From NCBI GenBank assembly GCA_002347265.1, contig DDYB01000032.1:86850-150849 (forward strand): DNA of 64,000 bases, given 5' to 3'. Every line of letters begins with the position of its first letter. Position 1 is the stretch's first letter. Under the pieces are notes generated by a model. The model made no database searches. It was not told the DNA's origin and saw only the letters and a list, made by a program, of their open reading frames with translations. This document shows, in pieces, positions 2,957 through 33,674 of this stretch. The translations under genes and the position numbers were made by a program. Source of the DNA: Desulfobacteraceae bacterium UBA2245. Lineage in GTDB: Bacteria > Desulfobacterota > Desulfobacteria > Desulfobacterales > UBA2245.

Positions 2957-3684
2957 TGATCCGACTCGAACAGGTTTCAAAAGCATTCAAAGGACAAATT
3001 GTCCTCGATCATCTGGACCTTGAAATCGAAAAAGGTAAAATTACCGTTATCATAGGCCAGAGCGGCGGCGGCAAAAGCGTTCTCTTAAAACATATGATCG
3101 GTCTGATCAGACCGGATTCGGGACATATCTATGTAAACGGCATCGACATCGTTTCTCTTGACGACAAAAAACTCAATGATATTCGAAAAAAGTTCGGCAT
3201 GCTGTTTCAGGCTGCGGCGCTGTTTGATTCGATGAACGTCGGCGAAAATGTCGCGTTTCCCCTGATTGAGCACACCAGGCTGCCGCGCAAGGAAATCATG
3301 AAAATTGCCGAAGAAAAGCTTCTTCGCGTCGGCCTGAAAAACGTATCGCACAAAATGCCGTCCGAACTTTCCGGCGGAATGCGTAAACGGGTGGGGCTGG
3401 CGCGTGCCATCGCTCTGGATCCTGAAATCATTCTCTTTGATGAACCGACAACGGGTCTCGATCCGGTGATGTGCGACGCAATTGACCGGCTGATCGTTGA
3501 AACTCAGAAGCAAACGGAGGCGACCTGCGTCATTATCAGCCATGACATCCCCTCCACGTTCAAGATCGCGAACAAAATAGCCATGCTCTACCAGGGAAAA
3601 ATTATTGAAATGGGAACCCCGGATGAAGTAAGGTCTTCAACAAACCCGGTGGTTCAAAATTTTATTGAGGGAAAATCCACATAG
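2956..3684 (+). CDS. mlaF: MlaF-family ABC transporter ATP-binding protein
   Basis: Walker A GQSGGGKS, signature LSGGMRKRV, Walker B ILFDEPTTGLDP; translationally coupled to mlaE. Confidence 0.95.
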   Translation: MIRLEQVSKAFKGQIVLDHLDLEIEKGKITVIIGQSGGGKSVLLKHMIGLIRPDSGHIYVNGIDIVSLDDKKLNDIRKKFGMLFQAAALFDSMNVGENVAFPLIEHTRLPRKEIMKIAEEKLLRVGLKNVSHKMPSELSGGMRKRVGLARAIALDPEIILFDEPTTGLDPVMCDAIDRLIVETQKQTEATCVIISHDIPSTFKIANKIAMLYQGKIIEMGTPDEVRSSTNPVVQNFIEGKST

Positions 3685-23753: not shown

Positions 23754-23836
23754 GAGGATCCTCCTGTTTATTAGATGTGTGACAAAACTTGAAAATACTG
23801 AAATTCAGGAAGAAATGCAAACAGTTCGAAATACCG

Positions 23837-24648
23837 ATGCGCGTTAAGAAACATCTCGGTTTTTCTTTTTTAAGAGCCGCCATCGCTCAGCGCATCCGGC
23901 AGATCGATGATCCGCGCCAGTCCGGAAAGGTCGCTCATTGTCTGCACGATGTGCTGATGAGCGGCTTTGCCATGATGTTTTTTCAGGACCTCTTTCTTCT
24001 GACCTGCCAGCGACGATTGCATGAACAAGCGCAGATCAACAACCTTCGCACGGTATTTGACAGCGGCAAGCCAGCCTACCGCAGCATTCTGGTTTAGTGG
24101 GTCAACGAGATCGGTTCCATGGACTGTGCGGGACGTTTTCAATTCATCGACAGAAAAGGCAAATGCCATAAGTATCATCGGGTTAACGACGCGCCGCTCA
24201 ATGGAACCGCAAATGCCGATCCGGGTAATTTTTTCCAGTACTGGATCATCGATGCCAAGGGAAAACGAGCTATCATAACAGCTGGGTAACCGACATCGCC
24301 GTTTCCGGAGATAACGTCCAAACCCTTGGAAAAGGTGGCCGCACACGATGGAAGATCGAAAACGAAACCTTTAACGCATTAAAGAACCAGGGCTGCCCCA
24401 TCGAGCACAACTAGGGTCACGGTCGGCAACATCTTTCGATGACTTTTCTAGTTCTGAACCTGCTTGCGTTTTTTGTTCATCAGATCCTGGAACTCTGTGA
24501 CCTGCCGTACCGGCGGTGTCGGGAAAAGTTTTCTTCCCGACGGGAGTGCTGGAACCAGTTACGATATGCCTTTCGAATCCTGCTGTTCAAAGATTATTAC
24601 CACTTGCTCGATTTCATTTTTAACCCGCCCATACTTCGAGCGCCGTAA
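23837..24648 (+). pseudogene. Decayed ISNCY-type transposase
   Basis: Homologous to 25069-26373 (RVKKHLGFS...MMFFQD; RWKIENETFN.LKNQG). Has a ~165-codon internal deletion removing both catalytic Asp, TAG stops at 24095 and 24412, and a frameshift near 24270. Confidence 0.9.
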
Positions 24649-24854
24649 GGAAACGCTCTGCCTTGTCTCCAATATCCTGGCCGCTCTGAATGGAGCGCAC
24701 CCCAATGCTCACCTGCGCCCCATTGCCCTGACTGCATGACTTCTGTCGGTCTGTTATGGACTCTATCGTGCAAAATAACAGCAAAACCGCTCGCCCGTTC
24801 TCTCCAAACCCAGTAGAACAATGCGCTGCCGGTTCATTCATCATAACCGGTCTC

Positions 24855-24871
24855 TTCGCTGAGAATTGCTG
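24855..24871 (+). repeat. Probable right terminal inverted repeat of the decayed IS
   Basis: TTCGCTGAGAATTGCTG is 14/17 identical to the right IR of the intact copy; 223 bp after its stop vs 219 bp in the intact element. Confidence 0.7.
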
Positions 24872-24880
24872 CACAATGTG

Positions 24881-26592
24881 CAGCAATTCTAACTGAATAT
24901 TGTTCATTGTTTCAGGCATGGGTTTTTGTGATTTTTCAAAATTATTTTTCGCAAAGGCAAAGCCTGCGATTTTTACAACTGATTGAATTAACTCAATAAA
25001 ATAAGTCTAGACATAACCCCTAAATATTGTTATATACTCTAACAGAACACCAATATGCAGGGGTTATTGTGCACGTTAAAAAACATCTGGGCTTTAGCGC
25101 ACTGCGCAAATCGATCGGCCAGGTCTTCGGCCAGATCGATGATCGCAGGCAATCGGGCAAGGTCGATTTTTCCTTGCACGATTGCCTCATGAGCGCTTTG
25201 GCGATGATGTTTTTTCAAGACCCCTCGCTGCTTGCCTTTCAGCGCCGCATGCAAGATCGCATGCATTGCAGCAATTTAAAAACCATGTTCGCGGTAAAGG
25301 CCATCCCCAGTGACGCTGTATTGCGAAAAAACATGGACCCTATTGGTACGGAAGATATCGATCCTTGCTTTGCGATCTTGTTCAGTCACCTGCAGCGGGG
25401 CAAGCAGCTGTTGCTCTACCAATTGGATAGCGGGCATTACCTGATCGCGCTGGATGGCTCGCAGTACTTTTCTTCCGATAAAATCAACTGCCCGAGCTGT
25501 TTGACCTACAAAGGCAGCAAGAGCAAGTTGCGCTACTCGCATCAAATCCTGCAGGCCGTGCTGCTTCATCCCAATATGCGCCAGGTGATACCGCTTGCCC
25601 CGGAGCCGATCATCAGGGCCGATGGATCCGATAAAAACGACTGTGAGCGCTGCGCGGGCAAAAGGCTGATTGCCAAAATCCGCTCAACCCATCCGAAGTT
25701 AAACATCATGGTCACCGGCGATGGCCTTTACTCTAATCAGCCTTTTATTGACGCGCTCAAAGCCAATGCCATGTCCTTTGTGCTGGTGGCCAAACCCAGC
25801 GATCACAAAATCTTGTTCCAATGGGTCGAAGAACTCGATGGCCTGGCCGGCGTTGAACACATCGAGTTTTGCGACCAGAAAGGCCGGCGCCACCATTACC
25901 GCTGGATCAACCAGGTGCCGTTAAACGGCGCCCGTGGTGCGGACCTTATCAATTTTTTTGAGTATTGGCTCACCGTGGATCAAAAAGTCACCTATCATAA
26001 CAGCTGGGTTACCGACCAGACGCTAAGCAGGCAAAACATTGTTGAACTGGTCAAGGCTGGACGGGCCCGCTGGAAAATCGAAAACGAAACGTTCAATACA
26101 CTCAAAAATCAAGGCTACCATCTCGAACACAATTTCGGCCATGGCCAGCAAAATTTATCGAACAACTTTTTCGTGCTCAACCTGCTGGCCTTTTTCATCC
26201 ATCAGATCCTTGAGTTGTGCGACTCTGGCTATCAGTATTGTCGTTCAAAGTTCAGTTCCCGAAAAGAGTATTGGAACAACCTGCGCGCAGCGATCCATCT
26301 GATGCTGTTTCGTGATTTTGAACACCTGTTGCGCTATGTGGCCAATCCGCATGAAATCTGGGCTCCCGACTGACAGGCAATCTGATAACATCCCATCTTA
26401 AAAAATGATCCGTCACTGCCGATGGTGGATACCTGTTGCCATCGCCTTTCTTAAAAATCCTATGCACACTGGATCTGGCCGAAACTTGGCCGCCCAACAC
26501 TCGAAAATACACTTCCAATTGTCAACTTCGTGCCTCACCCTCCCTTTACCACCCCCTGCTTGCGTCATTTGAATGTTCAGTTAGAATTGCTG
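24881..26592 (+). mobile_element. Intact insertion sequence, ISNCY-type (1712 bp)
   Basis: Perfect 17-bp terminal IRs CAGCAATTCTAACTGAA (24881-24897) / TTCAGTTAGAATTGCTG (26576-26592), extending to 21 bp with one mismatch, around one transposase. No target-site duplication seen. Confidence 0.85.
25069..26373 (+). CDS. DDE transposase, ISNCY type (IS4-like fold)
   Basis: GTG start aligns with the paralog ATG. Catalytic LIALDGSQ, VTGDGLYS, RWKIENETFNTLK. Internal TAGACA-17-TATATA promoter at 25008-25036. Confidence 0.92.
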   Translation: MHVKKHLGFSALRKSIGQVFGQIDDRRQSGKVDFSLHDCLMSALAMMFFQDPSLLAFQRRMQDRMHCSNLKTMFAVKAIPSDAVLRKNMDPIGTEDIDPCFAILFSHLQRGKQLLLYQLDSGHYLIALDGSQYFSSDKINCPSCLTYKGSKSKLRYSHQILQAVLLHPNMRQVIPLAPEPIIRADGSDKNDCERCAGKRLIAKIRSTHPKLNIMVTGDGLYSNQPFIDALKANAMSFVLVAKPSDHKILFQWVEELDGLAGVEHIEFCDQKGRRHHYRWINQVPLNGARGADLINFFEYWLTVDQKVTYHNSWVTDQTLSRQNIVELVKAGRARWKIENETFNTLKNQGYHLEHNFGHGQQNLSNNFFVLNLLAFFIHQILELCDSGYQYCRSKFSSRKEYWNNLRAAIHLMLFRDFEHLLRYVANPHEIWAPD

Positions 26593-26609
26593 GCTTGCGA
26601 AATTACAGC

Positions 26610-26681
26610 TTGACGAATCAAAAATTTTAGATTCTAATAACAAGTTTTTATGTTGACTTCTGGAATGGGGCTAAATAACAT
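26610..26681 (+). promoter_or_regulatory. Two tandem sigma70-like promoters upstream of the Cys-rich protein gene
   Basis: TTGACG-17-TCTAAT (26610-26638) and TTGACT-17-TAACAT (26653-26681). Confidence 0.5.
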
Positions 26682-27196
26682 ATAAATATATAAAGTGAGC
26701 ATCTTTTCGCAGCGACCCCTCCGATTGTACGTTTCTGGATTCTGAAAGATTTTATAATCGTCTTTTCCGTGCGGGCGACCTCTTTATTCAGATAAACCTC
26801 CACCAGGGAGGTGTGCAATGAACAAGAAACTGAAGTTCTGCATTTCTGTCTCCTGACAGGTTTTTTCGCCTGGTGGGAGAAGCTGGCAACATTTCTAAAC
26901 TTCAGCCACATCAATGTTTTTAAGCCTTTGATCGCGACGAAGCCGTGCGGCGCGTTGTGAAAAAAAGAGCTGTTTGTATGAGGTGCGGTTATGTCAAACA
27001 AGGCTTTGGTGTATTTCAAAATACCCATACAGCCGCCCAGCAGTGGCGCATGCCATTCCTGGGCGTGAAAACATGGCGGTCGGAGATGGTTTTTTTAACA
27101 TCGGGCACAATGATTCAAGGTTGTGCGGGATGGAGAAAAAACCAGGCGAAGAAAATGGACCTGTATTTTCAATTCTCGGAAAAAGGAGGTACGGGT

Positions 27197-28885
27197 ATGA
27201 AGATTTCGATACAAACGGTATGTGTTGGAGTTGCGCTCGTCTTTTCCGTATTTTTTCTATCGGGCGCAAGCACTGTGTTCGGGGCAGACGGGGCGGGTTT
27301 GTTTGAACTGGAGGGCAATGCCGTCCAGGACGATACTGAGCCCCCCCCTGACGATTGGGAGACCCTTTACGGTGGCGCCGGCGCCGCTGACCCCTCTATA
27401 TTTGAGCATGAGGGTACGGGCGTGACCATCTTCACGGGCGGCCGGAAGGACATTCAGAACATTCCGGAATGGGGCTACAAGGACGGCGCTGTGCCGGACA
27501 AGGACGATATCCTCGATGCCTTTGGCGCGGCTTATAATGATAATGGAGATCTGGTTGTCTATTTCGGCGCTGACCGTATCTCCAATGTCGGGGATGCCTA
27601 TATGGGCTTCTGGTTCTTCAAGCAGCAGGTCAGCCTGGATGGAAACGGCGGGTTCATTGGAGAGCACGAATTCGGCGATATTCTGGTGCTGGTGAACTTT
27701 CCGCAGGCTACGAACGCGGAACCCCTGGTGCAGGTGGTCGAGTGGGATACCAGTTGTTCCAAAGCGGACAGCAACACCCCCACGGTCGGTCAATGCGCCG
27801 CGGCTAACCTCAGACTGCTTGCGGGCGTTTCGGGCGCAGGCGCGATTTGCTCGGATACAGGGTATGTGGGCGCCTCTGGTGCATGTGCCATCACCAACGA
27901 GGAGGGCGGCCCCTATCATCTTACGACCTCGCCATGGCCTTACACGTCCAAGGACGGGTACGTGAACCAGTTTCCGTATGAAACATTCTTTGAGGGCGGA
28001 ATCAACCTGACCCAGCTTGTCGGGGGAGACACCTGCTACAGCAGCTTTATGGCCGAGACGCGTTCTTCAAGTTCGTTCACCGCATCGCTCAAGGATTTCG
28101 TTCTGGATTCCTTCCCGGTGTGCGCGATCTCCGTGACCAAGGACTGCGCCAATCCGAGATTCAGCGCCGATGATAATTATATCATCTATGACATTGCCGG
28201 CGCGGTCACGAATGACGGTTCCGCCACGGTGTACAACGTCAGCCTTGTCGACGTTCCCGCCTTTGATTCGGGTTCCCTGAACTGGTCCGGCAGCACCGCC
28301 TCCCTGGCCGGGGGTGCGAGCATCACCTACTTGGCGACCATTACAGTACCTAAAAATCAGAACGGACCTTCGGATCAGGTGACGGCAAAGGCTTACACGC
28401 TTCCGGCAGGCGGTACTGCGCTGACCGCTTCGGCTACGGATACCTGTCCGCAACTGCAGATCAGTCCCGAGCTTTCCGTTACCAAATCCTGCAGCTCCAT
28501 CGTTACAACGATGAATGACCCCGTGCAGGTCGTGGCTCGGGTGAATGTTTCCGGCGAGGTCTGCAACATCGGCGACACGCCGTTGTTCAACGTGGCGGTT
28601 GTAGATAATGAAGCCGGCACCCTGCTCTCGGGTCAGTACCTGGTCGAGCCGGATGATCCAGCAAATCCGGGCGACACCGAAGGTGCCTGCAAGACTTACA
28701 GCGGCTCGTATATCCCGTCCGAGGCCCTTGTATTCGATGGTTCGGCATCGACCACCGATCCTTCACTGGTTTATTTCAGGGATAGCGTGACGGCCACCGC
28801 TACCGATATTTTTGGAGCCCCTGTGACGCCACAATACGCCAATGCAAAATGCCCGCTCTGTCCGGAATGTGAGGAGTGCCCGTGA
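27197..28885 (+). CDS. Exported Cys-rich protein with two DUF11-like Ig repeats (putative adhesin/matrix protein)
   Basis: AAGGAGGT SD 6 nt before ATG 27197; signal peptide; FELEGNAVQD..PPPDDW and VPDKDDILDAFGAAY domain; two VTKxC...N.G...NV..VD repeats; ends CPLCPECEECP. Confidence 0.75.
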   Translation: MKISIQTVCVGVALVFSVFFLSGASTVFGADGAGLFELEGNAVQDDTEPPPDDWETLYGGAGAADPSIFEHEGTGVTIFTGGRKDIQNIPEWGYKDGAVPDKDDILDAFGAAYNDNGDLVVYFGADRISNVGDAYMGFWFFKQQVSLDGNGGFIGEHEFGDILVLVNFPQATNAEPLVQVVEWDTSCSKADSNTPTVGQCAAANLRLLAGVSGAGAICSDTGYVGASGACAITNEEGGPYHLTTSPWPYTSKDGYVNQFPYETFFEGGINLTQLVGGDTCYSSFMAETRSSSSFTASLKDFVLDSFPVCAISVTKDCANPRFSADDNYIIYDIAGAVTNDGSATVYNVSLVDVPAFDSGSLNWSGSTASLAGGASITYLATITVPKNQNGPSDQVTAKAYTLPAGGTALTASATDTCPQLQISPELSVTKSCSSIVTTMNDPVQVVARVNVSGEVCNIGDTPLFNVAVVDNEAGTLLSGQYLVEPDDPANPGDTEGACKTYSGSYIPSEALVFDGSASTTDPSLVYFRDSVTATATDIFGAPVTPQYANAKCPLCPECEECP

Positions 28886-28924
28886 CATCGGAAGGGCCGG
28901 CCGACTGTTAGTGGTAACCTGAGG

Positions 28925-28959
28925 GGGGCGGTGGGAGTGATCCCACCGCCCCTTTTATT
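28925..28959 (+). terminator. Rho-independent terminator between convergent accessory genes
   Basis: 12-bp stem GGGGCGGTGGGA/TCCCACCGCCCC, 4-nt loop, then TTTTATT. Confidence 0.85.
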
Positions 28960-29011
28960 CAGGCGGGGATATGAGCGCGGCGGCGCCGAGCGGACCGAGA
29001 GACGAGGCGCG

Positions 29012-31318
29012 CTACCTGGTTTTTGTAAACGACACCTGAACCGCTGCCGTTGCCTCGCATATGCCGTCCGTGATGGTATAGAAGAAACTGTCTTTCCCCT
29101 TGGCTTTGGGCACGGGGGTGTAGGTCGCCCTGCCGCTGGCGTCGAATGTCACGGTTCCCATGGAACCCTGTGTGAATCCCTTCACCGTCAGCGGATCATT
29201 GTCCGGATCCGAATCGTTGTTGAGTACGTATATGACCACTGGTGCGAGCTTTGTCGTTGAGGCGCTGTCATCAACGGCGACGGGCGCCTCATTATCCGAT
29301 TGCCGGCTCACGATATACGTCAACGAAGCCGAGGCTGCGCAGGCGGGATCACCGATGTCCTGCGCCGTAATGTCTATGGTATAGGAAGCAACCGCCGCAG
29401 AGGGCGCCGATGTGATCTCCAGGGTGGTAGCGGCGCTCGCACCCGGCTGTACCTCCAGGCGATCCGTGCCCCAGACGGCGGTCCATCCCTGCGGAATGAC
29501 GGCCGCCAGGTCAAAGAAGACGCCTGTGCAGCTGGCGCTGCCGGTATTGCTGACCGTAACGGTATAGGTTGCGGTCGTACCGGCCGCCACCCACTGACTT
29601 TCGGCAGGCGAAATCGCCACAATCGGATTGGTGCGCACGCAGATTGGCGTATCGAAGCTGACAGCCACCGACGCGGTGCCGCCGTTTCCGGAGAGGCTGG
29701 TAATCCATATACCGTTTCCAGGATCGGCAAATGTTCGCCCGAATACAAGCGCCGGATCTCCCCAGTCCCACGTCAACGAGCTGCCGGGCGTCATATCCAG
29801 CAGAACGCTGCTTCCGGGGTCAGACTCGTTTGCCATGTGCACCACCACCCCGTTGAGGTTGAGCATGTAATTGCTGCCGGCGAGGAAATCGTCGAAACCC
29901 AGGGCCTGACGGTATTCGATGTAGTACCACGTCTTTCCGCCGGTAACCGGGTCTGTGTCTTTCAGTACTTTCAGGGCGTTGGGCGTCGCATCGCGGTCCG
30001 TTTCGTAAGCTTCCAGCGTGTAGGTGCCGGATCTGTCGGCAGTGATGATATCATTCAGATTGGGGTCCAGCCAGCCAAGCCGCTCTTTCTGGAAGGCGTT
30101 GAAGTGTCCGACCGATTGATTCCCCATGATGTCCATGGTGTCACCGTATGGATATACCACGAAATCACCGCCGAGGGTCGTATCGCCGCACTCGAGGGCG
30201 GCGGAGTGAAAAAGTCCCAGATTATGACCCAATTCGTGGCCGACCGTCTTTAACCTGAACCAGCTTCCGTTGATCCATGCCTCGGAGGGATTGCCGCCGA
30301 CAGTGCCCGAACCCGAAGGAAAGCAGGGGGTTTGAGGGAAGACATAGATGTAGCGGTTAAAGGCGGAAAGGCTTACTCCCGCGTTTCGAGCCGCTTCCTG
30401 GGCAAGTCGGGCCACCTCGGCGGTTTTGCAGGTGGTGCTGTCGGTCGGCTGATCAAAGGGCAGCGTGTACCAGCCGTAAACCTCGCCGGTGAGCCAGGTC
30501 TGGCCGAAAGAACTCTCTTTGAAAAAATCGTTTACCGTGCCGAATACCAAGTCCCGCGCCTCTTCAACCGTCCAGGGCTCATTGGTCGGATCATTTCGAA
30601 AATTCACCAGCAGGACCAATGTGCGCTGCTCGCCGATGGTGTTGGGCAGCACCGCCGCCGAAGCTGCGCCCGCGGTCACGGATTCTTCACCGTCCAGCGC
30701 CAGGATTTGCAGGCCGGTCTCTCCGGACTCCAATGCCATGGCATCGTCCATCTGCACCCCACGGGCTCGCACCCGCAAGCCGCTGAGAACTCTGGGCGGC
30801 CGGGCTTTGAAGTAAAGCGAAATACGTTCACCGTTCACATTCAGAAGGTAACGAAGGCGGCTGCCGTCCTCGTAATCCTCTTCGATTACCTCCAGTGTGC
30901 CCTCCAGTTCGCGCCACTGTTCGATGAATGTCCGTACCAAAGCCGGCATTCCGTTATTCAGCCGTTTGGGCAGGGCGAGCCGCAGCACCTCGCCCGGATC
31001 GACCTCGATCAGCGAAAGAAGAAGCTGCCAGCGCTCGACCGCCGGATTGATGAGTTCGCCCTGCAGTTTTGACCGTTCGGCTGGACCGGCGGACAGGTAG
31101 CGGTTCATCAGGCCAACCAGGTGGTTTGTCAGGTGCTCTGCGTCGGCGGCCGCTCCGGCATCAGGGGTGGGCTGGGTGAGGGAAACCCCTGATGTGTCAG
31201 AGAACACAATCCCGAAAGCCAAAAGAATGACGAAGATCAGACGAAAGATGGGATACGAAATTCTCTGCAAGGAGAAAGGGTTCAAAAAGATTGATTTAAA
31301 TACAGGTCTCGGGTTCAT
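29012..31318 (-). CDS. Exported zinc metalloprotease (M11/gametolysin-like) with NEW3-like and Ig/cadherin-like (Big_9) domains
   Basis: HELGHNLGLFH metzincin motif, Met-turn GDTMDIMG; TYTVTVSNTG...PQGW NEW3-like; NEAPVAVDD...VLNNDSDPDND Big_9-like; hydrophobic N-terminus; AAAGGAGG SD. Confidence 0.85.
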   Translation of the reverse strand: MNPRPVFKSIFLNPFSLQRISYPIFRLIFVILLAFGIVFSDTSGVSLTQPTPDAGAAADAEHLTNHLVGLMNRYLSAGPAERSKLQGELINPAVERWQLLLSLIEVDPGEVLRLALPKRLNNGMPALVRTFIEQWRELEGTLEVIEEDYEDGSRLRYLLNVNGERISLYFKARPPRVLSGLRVRARGVQMDDAMALESGETGLQILALDGEESVTAGAASAAVLPNTIGEQRTLVLLVNFRNDPTNEPWTVEEARDLVFGTVNDFFKESSFGQTWLTGEVYGWYTLPFDQPTDSTTCKTAEVARLAQEAARNAGVSLSAFNRYIYVFPQTPCFPSGSGTVGGNPSEAWINGSWFRLKTVGHELGHNLGLFHSAALECGDTTLGGDFVVYPYGDTMDIMGNQSVGHFNAFQKERLGWLDPNLNDIITADRSGTYTLEAYETDRDATPNALKVLKDTDPVTGGKTWYYIEYRQALGFDDFLAGSNYMLNLNGVVVHMANESDPGSSVLLDMTPGSSLTWDWGDPALVFGRTFADPGNGIWITSLSGNGGTASVAVSFDTPICVRTNPIVAISPAESQWVAAGTTATYTVTVSNTGSASCTGVFFDLAAVIPQGWTAVWGTDRLEVQPGASAATTLEITSAPSAAVASYTIDITAQDIGDPACAASASLTYIVSRQSDNEAPVAVDDSASTTKLAPVVIYVLNNDSDPDNDPLTVKGFTQGSMGTVTFDASGRATYTPVPKAKGKDSFFYTITDGICEATAAVQVSFTKTR

Positions 31319-31385
31319 AAAAAAGCCTCCTTTGTTGATGGTACCGGAGGACTCCTTACTGCCCGATGCCGATAAGATGGTCTCT

Positions 31386-31473
31386 CTTCCTTCGGCAGCC
31401 CGGCTGTCCGTAATCAGTTCAGGACCCTAGACTTTGCGCCGCTGTCTTGCTACAGCGTTACCTTTTCGGGAAG
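31386..31473 (-). ncRNA. GEMM-I (c-di-GMP-I class) riboswitch aptamer
   Basis: Minus strand CUUCC-CGAAAAGGUAAC-GCUGUA-GCAA-GACAGC-GGCGCAAAGUCUAGGGUCC...GGACAGCCGGGCUGCCGAA-GGAAG. Shows P1 closure, P2 with GYRA loop, GCAAAG junction, P3 GUCC/GGAC with ACAGCC receptor; 68 nt upstream of the protease ATG. Confidence 0.88.
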
Positions 31474-31505
31474 GAGCCCTCAATCTTCAATTCTGTACAA
31501 AATTA

Positions 31506-31521
31506 AGCAACAACGGCGCCA
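31506..31521 (-). promoter_or_regulatory. Sigma54 (-24/-12) promoter upstream of the riboswitch
   Basis: TGGCGCCGTTGTTGCT fits TGGCAC-N5-TTGCW with exact GG-N10-GC spacing; predicted +1 near 31495, about 22 nt before P1. Confidence 0.7.
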
Positions 31522-31732
31522 TGTTCAGCAGATTCATATGCGCCATTATTTTCATGATCAACCCGCCTTTGCCAATTCCGGTTTCGGCAGTACATCGCGG
31601 CAATATATGCGCCTATTCAATCACTGCGCAGCGGCAGGCATCTTTTCCGCGCCCTGTCTTTCCGCCCGTCATGGGGCGGCTGCGCAGCATAAAAATTTAT
31701 CGGATAAATGTGAATACAACATCATTTTTTGA

Positions 31733-31860
31733 ACATAATGACACTATATGTAATAAAATGTCATTATGTCAAGCGAAAGAATCTCCGCATCTTTGAAAAA
31801 TAAAACCGCGTTCCCTTATTCATAAAAGCGCCGTCATGACAAGCGAAAAAATTTCCGCAT
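31733..31860. repeat. Inverted plus direct repeat cluster (candidate activator sites)
   Basis: IR ACATAATGACA-N15-TGTCATTATGT (31733-31769); DR AAGCGAAAGAATCTCCGCAT / AAGCGAAAAAATTTCCGCAT (31771, 31841; 18/20). Confidence 0.65.
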
Positions 31861-32138
31861 ATGCCGGGAAATAAGGTTAAGGCACAGTATTGTTTCCGTT
31901 TACTCAGCATGAGGGTGTGGATAAATTACCGGAAAGGGTCGGACGGGCTGGGAATCGCGGCTGCATAGTCGAATATCGGCTTAGACATGAACCGTCAAAA
32001 GCGGTGAGGCCGTACTCTGATTTGTCGTCAAGGCGTTGTATACTGCCAGGGGAAAATGGGGGGGCGGAAAGATTCTTGCCTCGCTTTCCGTGAAAGACGA
32101 TTGCCGGCTGTTATGATTCATGCGCAAACGCTCACATC

Positions 32139-33674
32139 CTACCGGATTTTTCCTCCCCGCTCCATTGTGCGGTACTGAACGGCCTCCGACACATGGGCCA
32201 GTTCGATGTCAGGCTTTTCTTCAAGATCGGCGATGGTCCGGGCGATTTTCAGTATCCGGTTGTAGGCGCGGGCCGAAAGCCCCAGTTTCTCGATAGCGTT
32301 TTCCAGAAGCGCCGAGGACGCGGTATCGATTCTGCAGAACTGTTTGATCTGCCGGCTGGCCATCTGTGCGTTGCAGTAAATGGGAAGCCTGACGAACCGA
32401 CGGGCCTGAATCGTGCGCGCCGAGGTGACCCGCTGGCGTATTTTTTCTGAGGATTCGGCGGAAAACTCCTTTTTAAGATCCCGGTAGGCGACCGCGGGCA
32501 CCTGAATGTGAATGTCGATCCTGTCCATCAGGGGTCCGGAGATCTTGGACCGGTAGCGCTGAATCTGGAGTGCGCTGCAGTCGCATCGGTGTCTGGGATC
32601 GGACAGATATCCGCACGGACAGGGGTTCATGGCGGCGACCAGCATGAAGCGGGAAGGGTAGGTGACGGTCGTTGAAGCCCGGGATATGGTGACCCGGTGA
32701 TCTTCCAGGGGCTGACGCAGCACCTCGAGTACATGTTTCTTGAATTCAGGCAGTTCGTCGAGAAACAGTACTCCGTTGTGAGCCATGCTGACCTCTCCGG
32801 GGCGTGGGCTCTGCCCCCCGCCGATCAGACCGGCATCCGAGATCGTATGGTGCGGGGATCGAAACGGACGCCGGGTGATCAGGGCCTGGTCTTTTTCAAG
32901 CATTCCCAGCACACTGTAAACCTTGGTGGTTTCGATGGACTCCTCAAAGCTCAAGGGGGGCAGGATAGTCGGCATGCGTTTGGCCAGCATGGTTTTCCCG
33001 GACCCGGGCGGCCCGACCATCAAAATGTTGTGCCCCCCGGCGGCAGCCACTTCAACGGCCCTTTTGGCGTGCTCCTGACCCAGAACTTCTGAAAAATCAG
33101 TATCCGTTTGATTCGGGGGTGCAAACAGCCCGGAAATGTCTATGGATTCGGCGGGTATCTGCTGGGAGCCGCGGCAGAATTCCACTACCTGGGAAAGGGT
33201 TCTGGCGCCGAGCACCAAGATGCCGTCCACCACCGACGCTTCCCGGCCGTTGTCCTCGGGAACGATAATGCCTTTGTAGCCGGACTGACGGGCTGCAAGG
33301 GCCATCAGAAGCGACCCTTTCACCGGTTTTACGCGGCCGTCCAGGGAAAGCTCTCCCATGATGAGATAGCGGGAAACCGTGTCCTGAGGAATGGTTCCTT
33401 TGGCTGCAAGAATTCCCAGGGCCATGGGAAGGTCAAATCCGGTTCCGTCCTTTTTGATGTTCGCCGGCGCCAGATTCACCGTGATCCGGTCATCCGGAAA
33501 CGTATAGCCGGAGTTTTGAATCGCCGACTTTACCCGTTCCCTGCTTTCTTTTACCGCGGTTTCCGGAAGTCCCACAGTGGTAAAGCAGGGAAGTCCCCGC
33601 GCTATATCTACTTCCACTTCAACCAGATAAGCATCAATCCCGATAACGGCGCTGCTCAAAACCTTGGATAGCAC
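32139..33674 (-). CDS. comM: YifB/ComM Mg-chelatase-like AAA+ ATPase
   Basis: VGLPETAVKESRERV, ITVNLAPA, GPPGSGKTM, RSPHHTIS, GVLFLDELPEF, AMNPCPCG, LSARAYNRILKIARTIADL. Confidence 0.95.
   Translation of the reverse strand: MLSKVLSSAVIGIDAYLVEVEVDIARGLPCFTTVGLPETAVKESRERVKSAIQNSGYTFPDDRITVNLAPANIKKDGTGFDLPMALGILAAKGTIPQDTVSRYLIMGELSLDGRVKPVKGSLLMALAARQSGYKGIIVPEDNGREASVVDGILVLGARTLSQVVEFCRGSQQIPAESIDISGLFAPPNQTDTDFSEVLGQEHAKRAVEVAAAGGHNILMVGPPGSGKTMLAKRMPTILPPLSFEESIETTKVYSVLGMLEKDQALITRRPFRSPHHTISDAGLIGGGQSPRPGEVSMAHNGVLFLDELPEFKKHVLEVLRQPLEDHRVTISRASTTVTYPSRFMLVAAMNPCPCGYLSDPRHRCDCSALQIQRYRSKISGPLMDRIDIHIQVPAVAYRDLKKEFSAESSEKIRQRVTSARTIQARRFVRLPIYCNAQMASRQIKQFCRIDTASSALLENAIEKLGLSARAYNRILKIARTIADLEEKPDIELAHVSEAVQYRTMERGGKIR

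Follow-up and report, generated by a model that had tools for sequence, protein, structure and literature searches.

Considered as a whole, the genome comparisons, domain searches and RNA folding described here suggest that two convergent genes of Desulfobacteraceae bacterium UBA2245, lying at positions 26593-32138 of the 64,000-nucleotide stretch that we analysed (contig DDYB01000032.1, positions 86,850 to 150,849 of the forward strand; hereafter the window), probably form a protease-and-target unit, not described before, by which cells would leave or remodel biofilms. One gene encodes an M11-type metalloprotease whose mRNA leader carries a class I riboswitch for cyclic di-GMP (c-di-GMP), and the other an exported β-sandwich protein that we call the partner. 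On balance we incline to the reading that the two make up a mobile extracellular module in which a riboswitch-OFF protease cleaves its neighbour protein. An initial annotation of this region had described two exported-type proteins encoded convergently, and this description holds: both genes are present, and an N-terminal hydrophobic signal-type segment can be read from the sequence of each. They converge on a 12-bp GC hairpin between their stop codons. The partner start was placed at 27197, within a reading frame that is open already from 26945 on the + strand, because all homologues begin with MK and a hydrophobic signal segment and AAGGAGG stands 7 nt before this ATG. The genome of the window (G000) is 3.1 Mb long and rated 99.87% complete; G001 is its sister genome in the genus.

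27197-28885, + strand: partner gene, 562 aa, exported-type N-terminus
29012-31318, - strand: protease gene, 768 aa, GGAGG 8 nt before the ATG

As far as the comparative data reach, the pair is a unit. Within the order each gene occurs in 2 of 41 genomes, both of them in this genus only, a perfect co-presence and co-absence, and the top matches of the two protein searches have at least 12 contigs in common. The convergent layout is shared by metagenomic relatives at 95% and 61% identity and by Desulfuromonas, Nitrospirales, Rokubacteria, Marinobacterium, Pseudogulbenkiania and one gammaproteobacterial metagenome-assembled genome (MAG), and altogether it is found across many phyla at 30-60% protein identity; in Pseudomonas sp. 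8AS a partner gene lies on either side of the protease. We examined 37 full-length partner homologues whose metagenomic contigs extend at least 0.9 kb downstream, and 24 of them have the protease convergent to them, 60-170 bp downstream. Moreover, the pairwise divergences of protease and partner are correlated over 24 loci (Mantel r 0.755, p ≤ 2e-4), a correlation that reflects co-inheritance and not interaction. Among the protease loci scanned, 14 of about 28 from genomes and 7 of 16 from metagenomes have the aptamer immediately before the gene, in several phyla, so that the association of the pair with the riboswitch is frequent and phylogenetically wide, and not obligatory. The functional link had at first been made on adjacency only; it now extends to a conserved, co-inherited synteny and a recurrent riboswitch-protease association, and the proposed check of co-occurrence and synteny has come out in its favour, with the pair co-present or co-absent across the order and convergent in dozens of loci.

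Additional support comes through loci in which the pair is duplicated or its partner replaced. Tandem pairs are present in Vibrio parahaemolyticus (L084, 6956-15635) and Shewanella salipaludis (L085, 4367-15641), where a short protease goes with a partner of the window type (class A) and a long one with a partner of another class (class B). Homology between the two classes was considered, and with an hhalign probability of 22%, confined to the β-sandwich region, we keep them apart as two families. Neither tandem locus, in Vibrio or in Shewanella, yielded a riboswitch match, the leader of the long protease lying past the locus end. Protease loci that lack a window-type partner nearly all have a convergent open reading frame (ORF) of 450-840 aa, and two of the other convergent partner classes that we scanned also carry isopeptide-type domains (DUF7507, SpaA_4). 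A σ54 activator with a VpsR-type N-terminal domain adjoins the module in about 20 loci, many of them gammaproteobacterial, and the Shewanella tandem pairs are preceded by such an activator together with a DsbA-like gene. DsbA-like genes are near the module in several loci, a neighbourhood that would suit the partner because it has many invariant cysteines.

The protease matches Pfam Peptidase_M11 (PF05548) at residues 262-497 with 42.6 bits against a cut-off of 21. Its layout begins with a signal or anchor segment and a region that is missing from the short paralogues, both N-terminal, and continues with the M11 catalytic domain, a NEW3/DUF11-like domain (NPCBM_assoc, 37.2 bits) and a Big_9/cadherin-like domain (69.5 bits). 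Since neither the zinc motif HELGHNLGLFH (HExxHxxGxxH) nor the Met that follows it further on varies among 19 homologues (H361, E362, H365, G368, H371 and M398), we read the protein as a competent metzincin of the gametolysin-like M11 type. Weak Pfam matches to M6 and astacin also fall on it. Identity with the Pro-Pro endopeptidases (PPEP, M34-like) was considered and rejected, as the Pfam scan shows no M34 domain.

The partner belongs to a family of 683 homologues and matches Pfam DUF7507 (CLIPPER_2, PF24346) at residues 310-387 with 37.6 bits against a cut-off of 27. CLIPPER_2 is the present Pfam name of DUF7507, a CnaA-like domain with predicted intramolecular isopeptide bonds that is typical of surface proteins and of a type built for resistance to proteolysis (PMC12617251). 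An AlphaFold 2 model (mean predicted local distance difference test score 78.5) shows a conserved all-β N-terminal domain of about 280 aa and two CLIPPER_2/DUF7507-like β-sandwiches; the sequence adds a signal peptide and a C-terminal CPLCP. Invariant lysines, K315 and K430, open the two sandwich domains, and the Asn/Asp position of the predicted Lys-Asp-Asn isopeptide triad varies (D in the window). The protein had been called Cys-rich, a description that we would narrow to its tail: a conserved C-terminal CP[LI]CP, with C552 and C555 invariant in an alignment of 24 homologues. Solved structures gave no sequence match for either protein, and a structure search with the N-terminal domain of the partner returned no significant PDB neighbour (best E 0.027). 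With the whole model, Foldseek gave generic Ig-like tandem matches only (integrin legs, pilins, RbmA and transglutaminase barrels, with template modelling scores of 0.27 or below), and as modelled the fold yields no function. By domain type the partner is plausible as an adhesin, and a secreted matrix protein is at least as likely as an adhesin.

Control of the protease gene can be followed in its leader, where the aptamer is followed by a compact expression platform and preceded by two promoter-like elements.

31733-31772, - strand: distal σ70-like promoter, near-consensus TTGACA-N18-TATAGT, overlapped by the palindrome ACATAATGACA-N15-TGTCATTATGT with 11-bp arms
31521-31506, - strand: σ54-type -24/-12 element TGGCGCcgttgTTGCT, in agreement with the consensus at 10 of 11 positions, with 33 nt between it and the aptamer
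31481-31471, - strand: leader element GAGGGCUCCUU, which mimics the Shine-Dalgarno (SD) sequence and pairs with the 3' strand of helix P1 or with the anti-SD
31391-31472, - strand: c-di-GMP-I (GEMM-I) aptamer, 82 nt, RF01051 at 46.3 bits against a cut-off of 35, E 7e-6 for the window
31390-31319, - strand: expression platform, with the P1 3' strand GGAAG at 31390-31386
31357-31346, - strand: anti-SD AAGGAGUCCUCC
31330-31319, - strand: SD region GGAGGCUUUUUU, with the SD GGAGG at 31330-31326, then U6; the AUG is at 31318

A σ54 promoter and a cyclic-dinucleotide riboswitch had been assigned to the protease, and both assignments are borne out. The aptamer match is full-length (model positions 1-87) and is the sole RF01051 match in the 3.1-Mb genome, as is its counterpart in the sister genome; elsewhere in the order c-di-GMP-I riboswitches are common, occurring in 24 of 41 genomes and numbering as many as 14 in one genome. 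The orthologous aptamer of G001 reaches 55.3 bits (RF01051) and that of the metagenomic relative L002 60 bits, the latter listed with the clan model RF03167. The window aptamer keeps G20, A47 and CC at 92/93 (in the alignment, G-G at the GGC position, GCAAAG and GCCGAA), in a numbering that we take to carry over from the Vc2 sequence to the Rfam consensus (G20, A47, C92). Position 20 separates c-di-GMP sensing (G20) from cyclic GMP-AMP (cGAMP) sensing (A20) (PMC6140456), and the aptamer is predicted to sense c-di-GMP. Two other assignments were rejected: cGAMP as ligand, position 20 being G and not A, and the c-di-GMP-I-GGC variant (RF03167), which reached 45.5 bits against a gathering score of 59 and has G at position A47 where the window has A. 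Two relatives vary the architecture. In the 61%-identical relative L003 the aptamer is 138 nt long against 82 nt, the extra length folding as an extended hairpin in the variable helix, and in L026 two c-di-GMP-I aptamers stand back to back (3282-3359 on the - strand and 3569-3657 on the + strand), one facing the protease and the other a divergent gene.

The expression platform suggests how ligand binding might be read out. P1 is formed by CUUCC and GGAAG, with CUUCC supplied by the leader, and the same leader nucleotides serve P1 and the leader:anti-SD helix in the window, G001, L002, L003 and L134, so that the two pairings are mutually exclusive in these loci. When P1 was forced in the window leader the best fold had -62.1 kcal/mol and the probability of an unpaired SD was 0.00, and when the leader:anti-SD helix was forced the values were -61.9 kcal/mol and 0.76. 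In the model the two states are thus isoenergetic, and two such states, one of them stabilised by ligand, are what a switch needs. The call between ON and OFF rests on these folds in which each competing helix was forced, which alone are informative. Forcing P1 closed the SD in all five leaders folded (window, G001, L003, L087 and L134). The design of leader, anti-SD and SD recurs with different sequences in at least 10 loci, for instance as GAAAGAUCUC, GAGAUCUUUC and GGAGGGAUCU in L087, with leader and anti-SD UCGAAAGC and GCUUUCGA in L089 and L015, and with the same three parts in L134. Because the direction was the same in all five leaders despite their differing sequences, we predict a translational OFF switch by which the protease is made at low c-di-GMP, and consider this likely.

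Transcription of the protease would probably start from the σ54-type element. Equivalent -24/-12 elements lie 28-35 nt upstream of the aptamer in G001, L002, L014 (a deltaproteobacterial MAG) and L018 (a Rokubacteria MAG), and that of G001 is perfect (TGGCAC-N5-TTGCT, 11 of 11); the gammaproteobacterial loci have no -24/-12 element before the aptamer. The genome encodes rpoN and 6 GGDEF proteins. The distal σ70-like promoter lies in a block of about 120-290 nt, duplicated from the promoter region upstream of a TetR-family gene and diverged from it (71-78%; block coordinates in L086, 6680-6900 and 12228-12516). This TetR-family gene flanks the partner in G001 and L002, and in the window genome it is intact and 100% conserved but lies on a different contig, contig 13.

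The partner has a long leader of a different kind.

26593-27196, + strand: partner leader and promoter region, starting directly after the inverted repeat of an insertion sequence (IS)
26818-26856, + strand: upstream ORF (uORF) of 12 codons, MNKKLKFCISVS, with the SD GGGAGG
26845-26860, + strand: terminator-like hairpin followed by T6 (to 26866), containing the uORF stop

Of the σ70-like promoters and long leader once assigned to the partner, the leader stands (about 600 nt, about 90% identical to the sister genome) and the promoters are the weakest part, consensus σ70 matches being no more frequent in the region (11) than in shuffles (8.0 +/- 2.9 expected). The uORF and the hairpin resemble an attenuator. 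The window and the sister genome encode the same uORF peptide, with a single synonymous difference between them, and it was not found upstream of distant partner homologues, beyond the genus. Rfam searches of the partner leader returned no known RNA family, either at the gathering cut-off or at E ≤ 1, and in the loci scanned no riboswitch was found upstream of partner homologues either. No σ54 element was found upstream of the window partner; in gammaproteobacterial loci some σ54 matches at 9 of 11 positions lie about 115 bp upstream of the partners, which we regard as a lead only.

From these observations we propose the following sequence of events. The partner would be exported by the Sec pathway and, with its novel all-β N-terminal domain and two isopeptide-type sandwiches, would have the make-up of a surface or matrix protein. 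The gene of the M11 metzincin would be transcribed probably from the σ54 promoter and possibly also from the distal, repressor-controlled σ70 promoter. With c-di-GMP bound, P1 would capture the leader and leave the anti-SD free to pair with the SD region, and no protease would be made; at low c-di-GMP the leader would pair with the anti-SD, the ribosome-binding site would open, and the protease would be made. It would then cleave, and so release or remodel, its cognate neighbour protein, and a fall in c-di-GMP would in this way bring about detachment or matrix turnover. What is established in this account is which parts there are, that they are conserved and inherited together, and that the pairings compete. 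That the partner is the substrate of the protease has, judging by the comparative evidence, close to an even chance. The riboswitch-gated attach/detach system of the initial annotation is upheld in part: synteny and co-inheritance speak for it, and the predicted OFF logic would fit release at low c-di-GMP. We can at present offer only tentatively, as possible rather than probable, the wider proposal of a widespread mobile stick-and-release cassette in diderms (Desulfobacterota, Gammaproteobacteria, Nitrospirota, Rokubacteria and others), in which a riboswitch-controlled metzincin would cleave a cognate isopeptide-stabilised surface or matrix protein, and protease clades and partner classes would have co-diversified into specific pairs.

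Several observations weigh against the proposal that the riboswitch-controlled protease cleaves its neighbour. About one third of the partner homologues with enough flank have no adjoining M11 protease, about half of the protease loci have no riboswitch, and the correlated divergence of the two proteins would be expected of any linked genes. No lipobox, LPXTG motif or C-terminal membrane or sorting tag is recognisable in the partner sequence, and therefore release from the cell would be less likely than remodelling of the matrix. No c-di-GMP-responsive element was found for the partner itself, so that inverse regulation of the two genes is no more than a possibility. As for the switch, unconstrained thermodynamic folding gave small differences in SD accessibility and so discriminates weakly, and P1 and the leader:anti-SD helix occupy separate positions in some gammaproteobacterial leaders, which makes the direction uncertain there.

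Three other explanations have to be set beside it. The partner might cooperate with the protease instead of being cut by it, as a targeting, scaffolding or anchoring subunit, a chaperone or an inhibitor, and would then position or restrain the enzyme at the surface of the cell, within the matrix or on a substrate outside, for example the cell-wall glycoproteins of algae or microbes. DUF11/CLIPPER-like β-sandwiches in both proteins, the match of protease types to cognate partner classes, the tight synteny and the degradation of cell walls by M11 gametolysin, an established property of that family, would all agree with such a role. However, the two genes face each other, each with a promoter and leader of its own, and the riboswitch belongs to the protease only, which argues against obligatory co-expression, and a third of the partner genes stand without a protease. 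The proteolysis-resistant isopeptide domains would suit a protein that meets a protease, yet they fit either reading (PMC12617251). We judge cooperation unlikely on this evidence, and less so than an opposite polarity of the switch, which seems to us distinctly improbable. In the latter case c-di-GMP would stabilise a continuous stack of P1 and the leader:anti-SD helix and free the ribosome-binding site, and the protease would be made together with matrix components at high c-di-GMP and mature the partner, in the manner of RbmA. Such an ON switch could draw on L089 and L015, where the leader:anti-SD helix sits immediately beyond P1, so that stacking on it instead of competition is conceivable, on the VpsR-like activators adjoining the module, which are of the kind that controls matrix genes, and on the weak Foldseek matches to RbmA. 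Against it stand the mutual exclusion of the two helices in the window and four other loci and the closing of the SD under forced P1 in every leader folded.

Finally, two unrelated secreted proteins might lie side by side by chance on a transferred fragment. Each gene can occur without the other, which would agree with this, but the convergent layout in many phyla, the tandem duplicates and the perfect co-presence and co-absence in the order leave chance adjacency very unlikely, the least credible of the accounts considered. We retain as preferred reading that the protease, switched off by c-di-GMP, cleaves its neighbour.

Known systems offer several points of comparison. In Clostridioides difficile the protease ZmpI/PPEP-1 (CD2830), which c-di-GMP represses, has a class I c-di-GMP riboswitch in its mRNA; the enzyme cleaves adhesins off the cell, and class II riboswitches induce the adhesin genes next to it (PMC6366702). 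Its adhesin targets are CD2831 and CD3246, the neighbouring surface protein being described as a collagen-binding adhesin, and through the opposite regulation of protease and target cells stick at high c-di-GMP and release at low (PMC6366702, PMC6200980). The module resembles PPEP-1/CD2831 in combining a secreted zinc metalloprotease, a class I c-di-GMP riboswitch and an adjoining gene for a surface-type protein. It differs in that its protease is an M11 metzincin and PPEP-1 an M34-like Pro-Pro endopeptidase, in that CD2831 and CD3246 are LPXTG sortase substrates with class II ON riboswitches whereas the window partner has neither an anchor motif nor a known riboswitch, and in that the hosts here are diderm, not Gram-positive, and control is predicted to be translational, via SD sequestration. 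By analogy PPEP-1/CD2831 is nonetheless the closer precedent than LapA/LapG, with the same logic built from unrelated families. The comparison with LapA/LapG that had been drawn before applies to the logic, as in the LapA/LapG/LapD system of Pseudomonas fluorescens c-di-GMP decides the release of a surface adhesin by a protease, and not to the parts: LapG is a periplasmic cysteine protease held by the receptor LapD, and LapA a giant adhesin of a type I secretion system, whereas the sensor here is RNA. A Lap-type release system was rejected for the pair since neither window protein has LapG, LapD or type I secretion adhesin domains, the search for LapD and LapG having covered these two proteins and not the rest of the genome.

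The individual proteins have further relatives. With the gametolysin of Chlamydomonas the protease shares its catalytic family and the HExxHxxGxxH motif, but gametolysin is a eukaryotic enzyme that lyses cell walls, and the bacterial proteins have NEW3 and Big_9/cadherin-like domains in addition. Similar to the CLIPPER/CLIPPER_2 (DUF11/DUF7507) fibrillar adhesins the partner carries DUF7507 above cut-off, and its C-terminal CxxC is similar to a tetrapeptide disulfide that a solved CLIPPER domain has in its last strand (PMC12617251). It departs from the fibrillar adhesins in having two isopeptide-type domains, no long stalk and a large novel N-terminal domain. RbmA of Vibrio cholerae is a secreted β-sandwich matrix protein that is remodelled by the secreted proteases HapA, PrtV and IvaP; in contrast to the module it is not known to have a dedicated adjacent protease or a riboswitch, and the structural likeness between RbmA and the partner is generic and Ig-like. 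In the literature searched we found no paper that links a c-di-GMP riboswitch with gametolysin or M11, nor one on this protein pair, and the three publications that mention both a riboswitch and DUF11 do not concern it, as judged from the titles and abstracts of two of them.

The surroundings of the pair bear on its origin.

~23790-24875: degraded IS copy beside the intact one and related to it, 71% identical segments
24881-26592: intact IS, 21-bp inverted repeats at 24881-24901 and 26572-26592, DDE transposase at 25027-26373
28925-28959, + strand: intrinsic terminator of the partner gene, stem GGGGCGGTGGGA-gtga-TCCCACCGCCCC (28925-28952) with 12 bp of GC and a 4-nt loop, then TTTTATT
32139-33674: comM, right flank of the module

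The module had been taken as inserted between an IS pair and comM, a view that we cannot share. Homology with the sister genome starts exactly at 26593, spans both genes and continues into comM, and with the junction between module and comM shared in this way the IS is therefore best read as a later arrival on the partner side; it is, on this comparison, not the vehicle of the module. The end of the degraded IS copy is partly present beside the module in the metagenomic relative L002. The G+C content of about 60% ascribed to both genes was close to what we found (54-60% across the two, against 42-53% leftward), but comM is equally GC-rich, and because of this the module is compositionally not odd. 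As to the one strong terminator on which the genes converge, since the U-tract is on the + strand only and there is none on the minus strand, the hairpin reads as a canonical terminator for the partner and not for the protease. An Acido-1 match at 28910-28950 (28.5 bits against a cut-off of 50) was rejected as the terminator hairpin itself.

With regard to the host, the lineage had been called one of sulfate reducers. As dsrA (TIGR02064) has no match in this near-complete genome, the organism is probably not a dissimilatory sulfate reducer. In relatives of the same order we also observed tandem arrays of 6, 5 and 4 c-di-GMP-I aptamers, a length that is unusual. Immediately after each array a small DUF6160 protein (152-201 aa) is encoded, which is followed in two of them by an ORF of about 290 aa and an LVIVD-repeat protein and in the third by a CheA-like kinase.

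G013:C114:690-1206 (L160): aptamer array
G019:C75:11273-11672 (L161): aptamer array
G019:C79:7082-7405 (L162): aptamer array

Riboswitches for c-di-GMP are abundant, but outside C. difficile and V. cholerae the role has been worked out for few of the genes under their control. Here an association of riboswitch and gene across phyla, together with a conserved and plausible target, amounts to a testable protease-substrate hypothesis, and it concerns two large uncharacterised families, the bacterial M11 'Ig-like domain-containing' proteins and the 683-member 'hypothetical/DUF11' family. The protease leader is, as predicted, a compact natural three-element translational OFF switch stacked on a σ54 promoter. 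If the proposed mechanism is true, a principle known from a Gram-positive pathogen, with protease off and adhesin on at high c-di-GMP, would extend to environmental diderms with unrelated parts, and Vibrio parahaemolyticus, Shewanella, Marinobacterium and Pseudomonas would be culturable carriers in which to test it. Should the stick-and-release cassette itself prove real, it would constitute a new family of RNA-sensed adhesin or matrix release, parallel to LapG/LapA and PPEP-1/CD2831.

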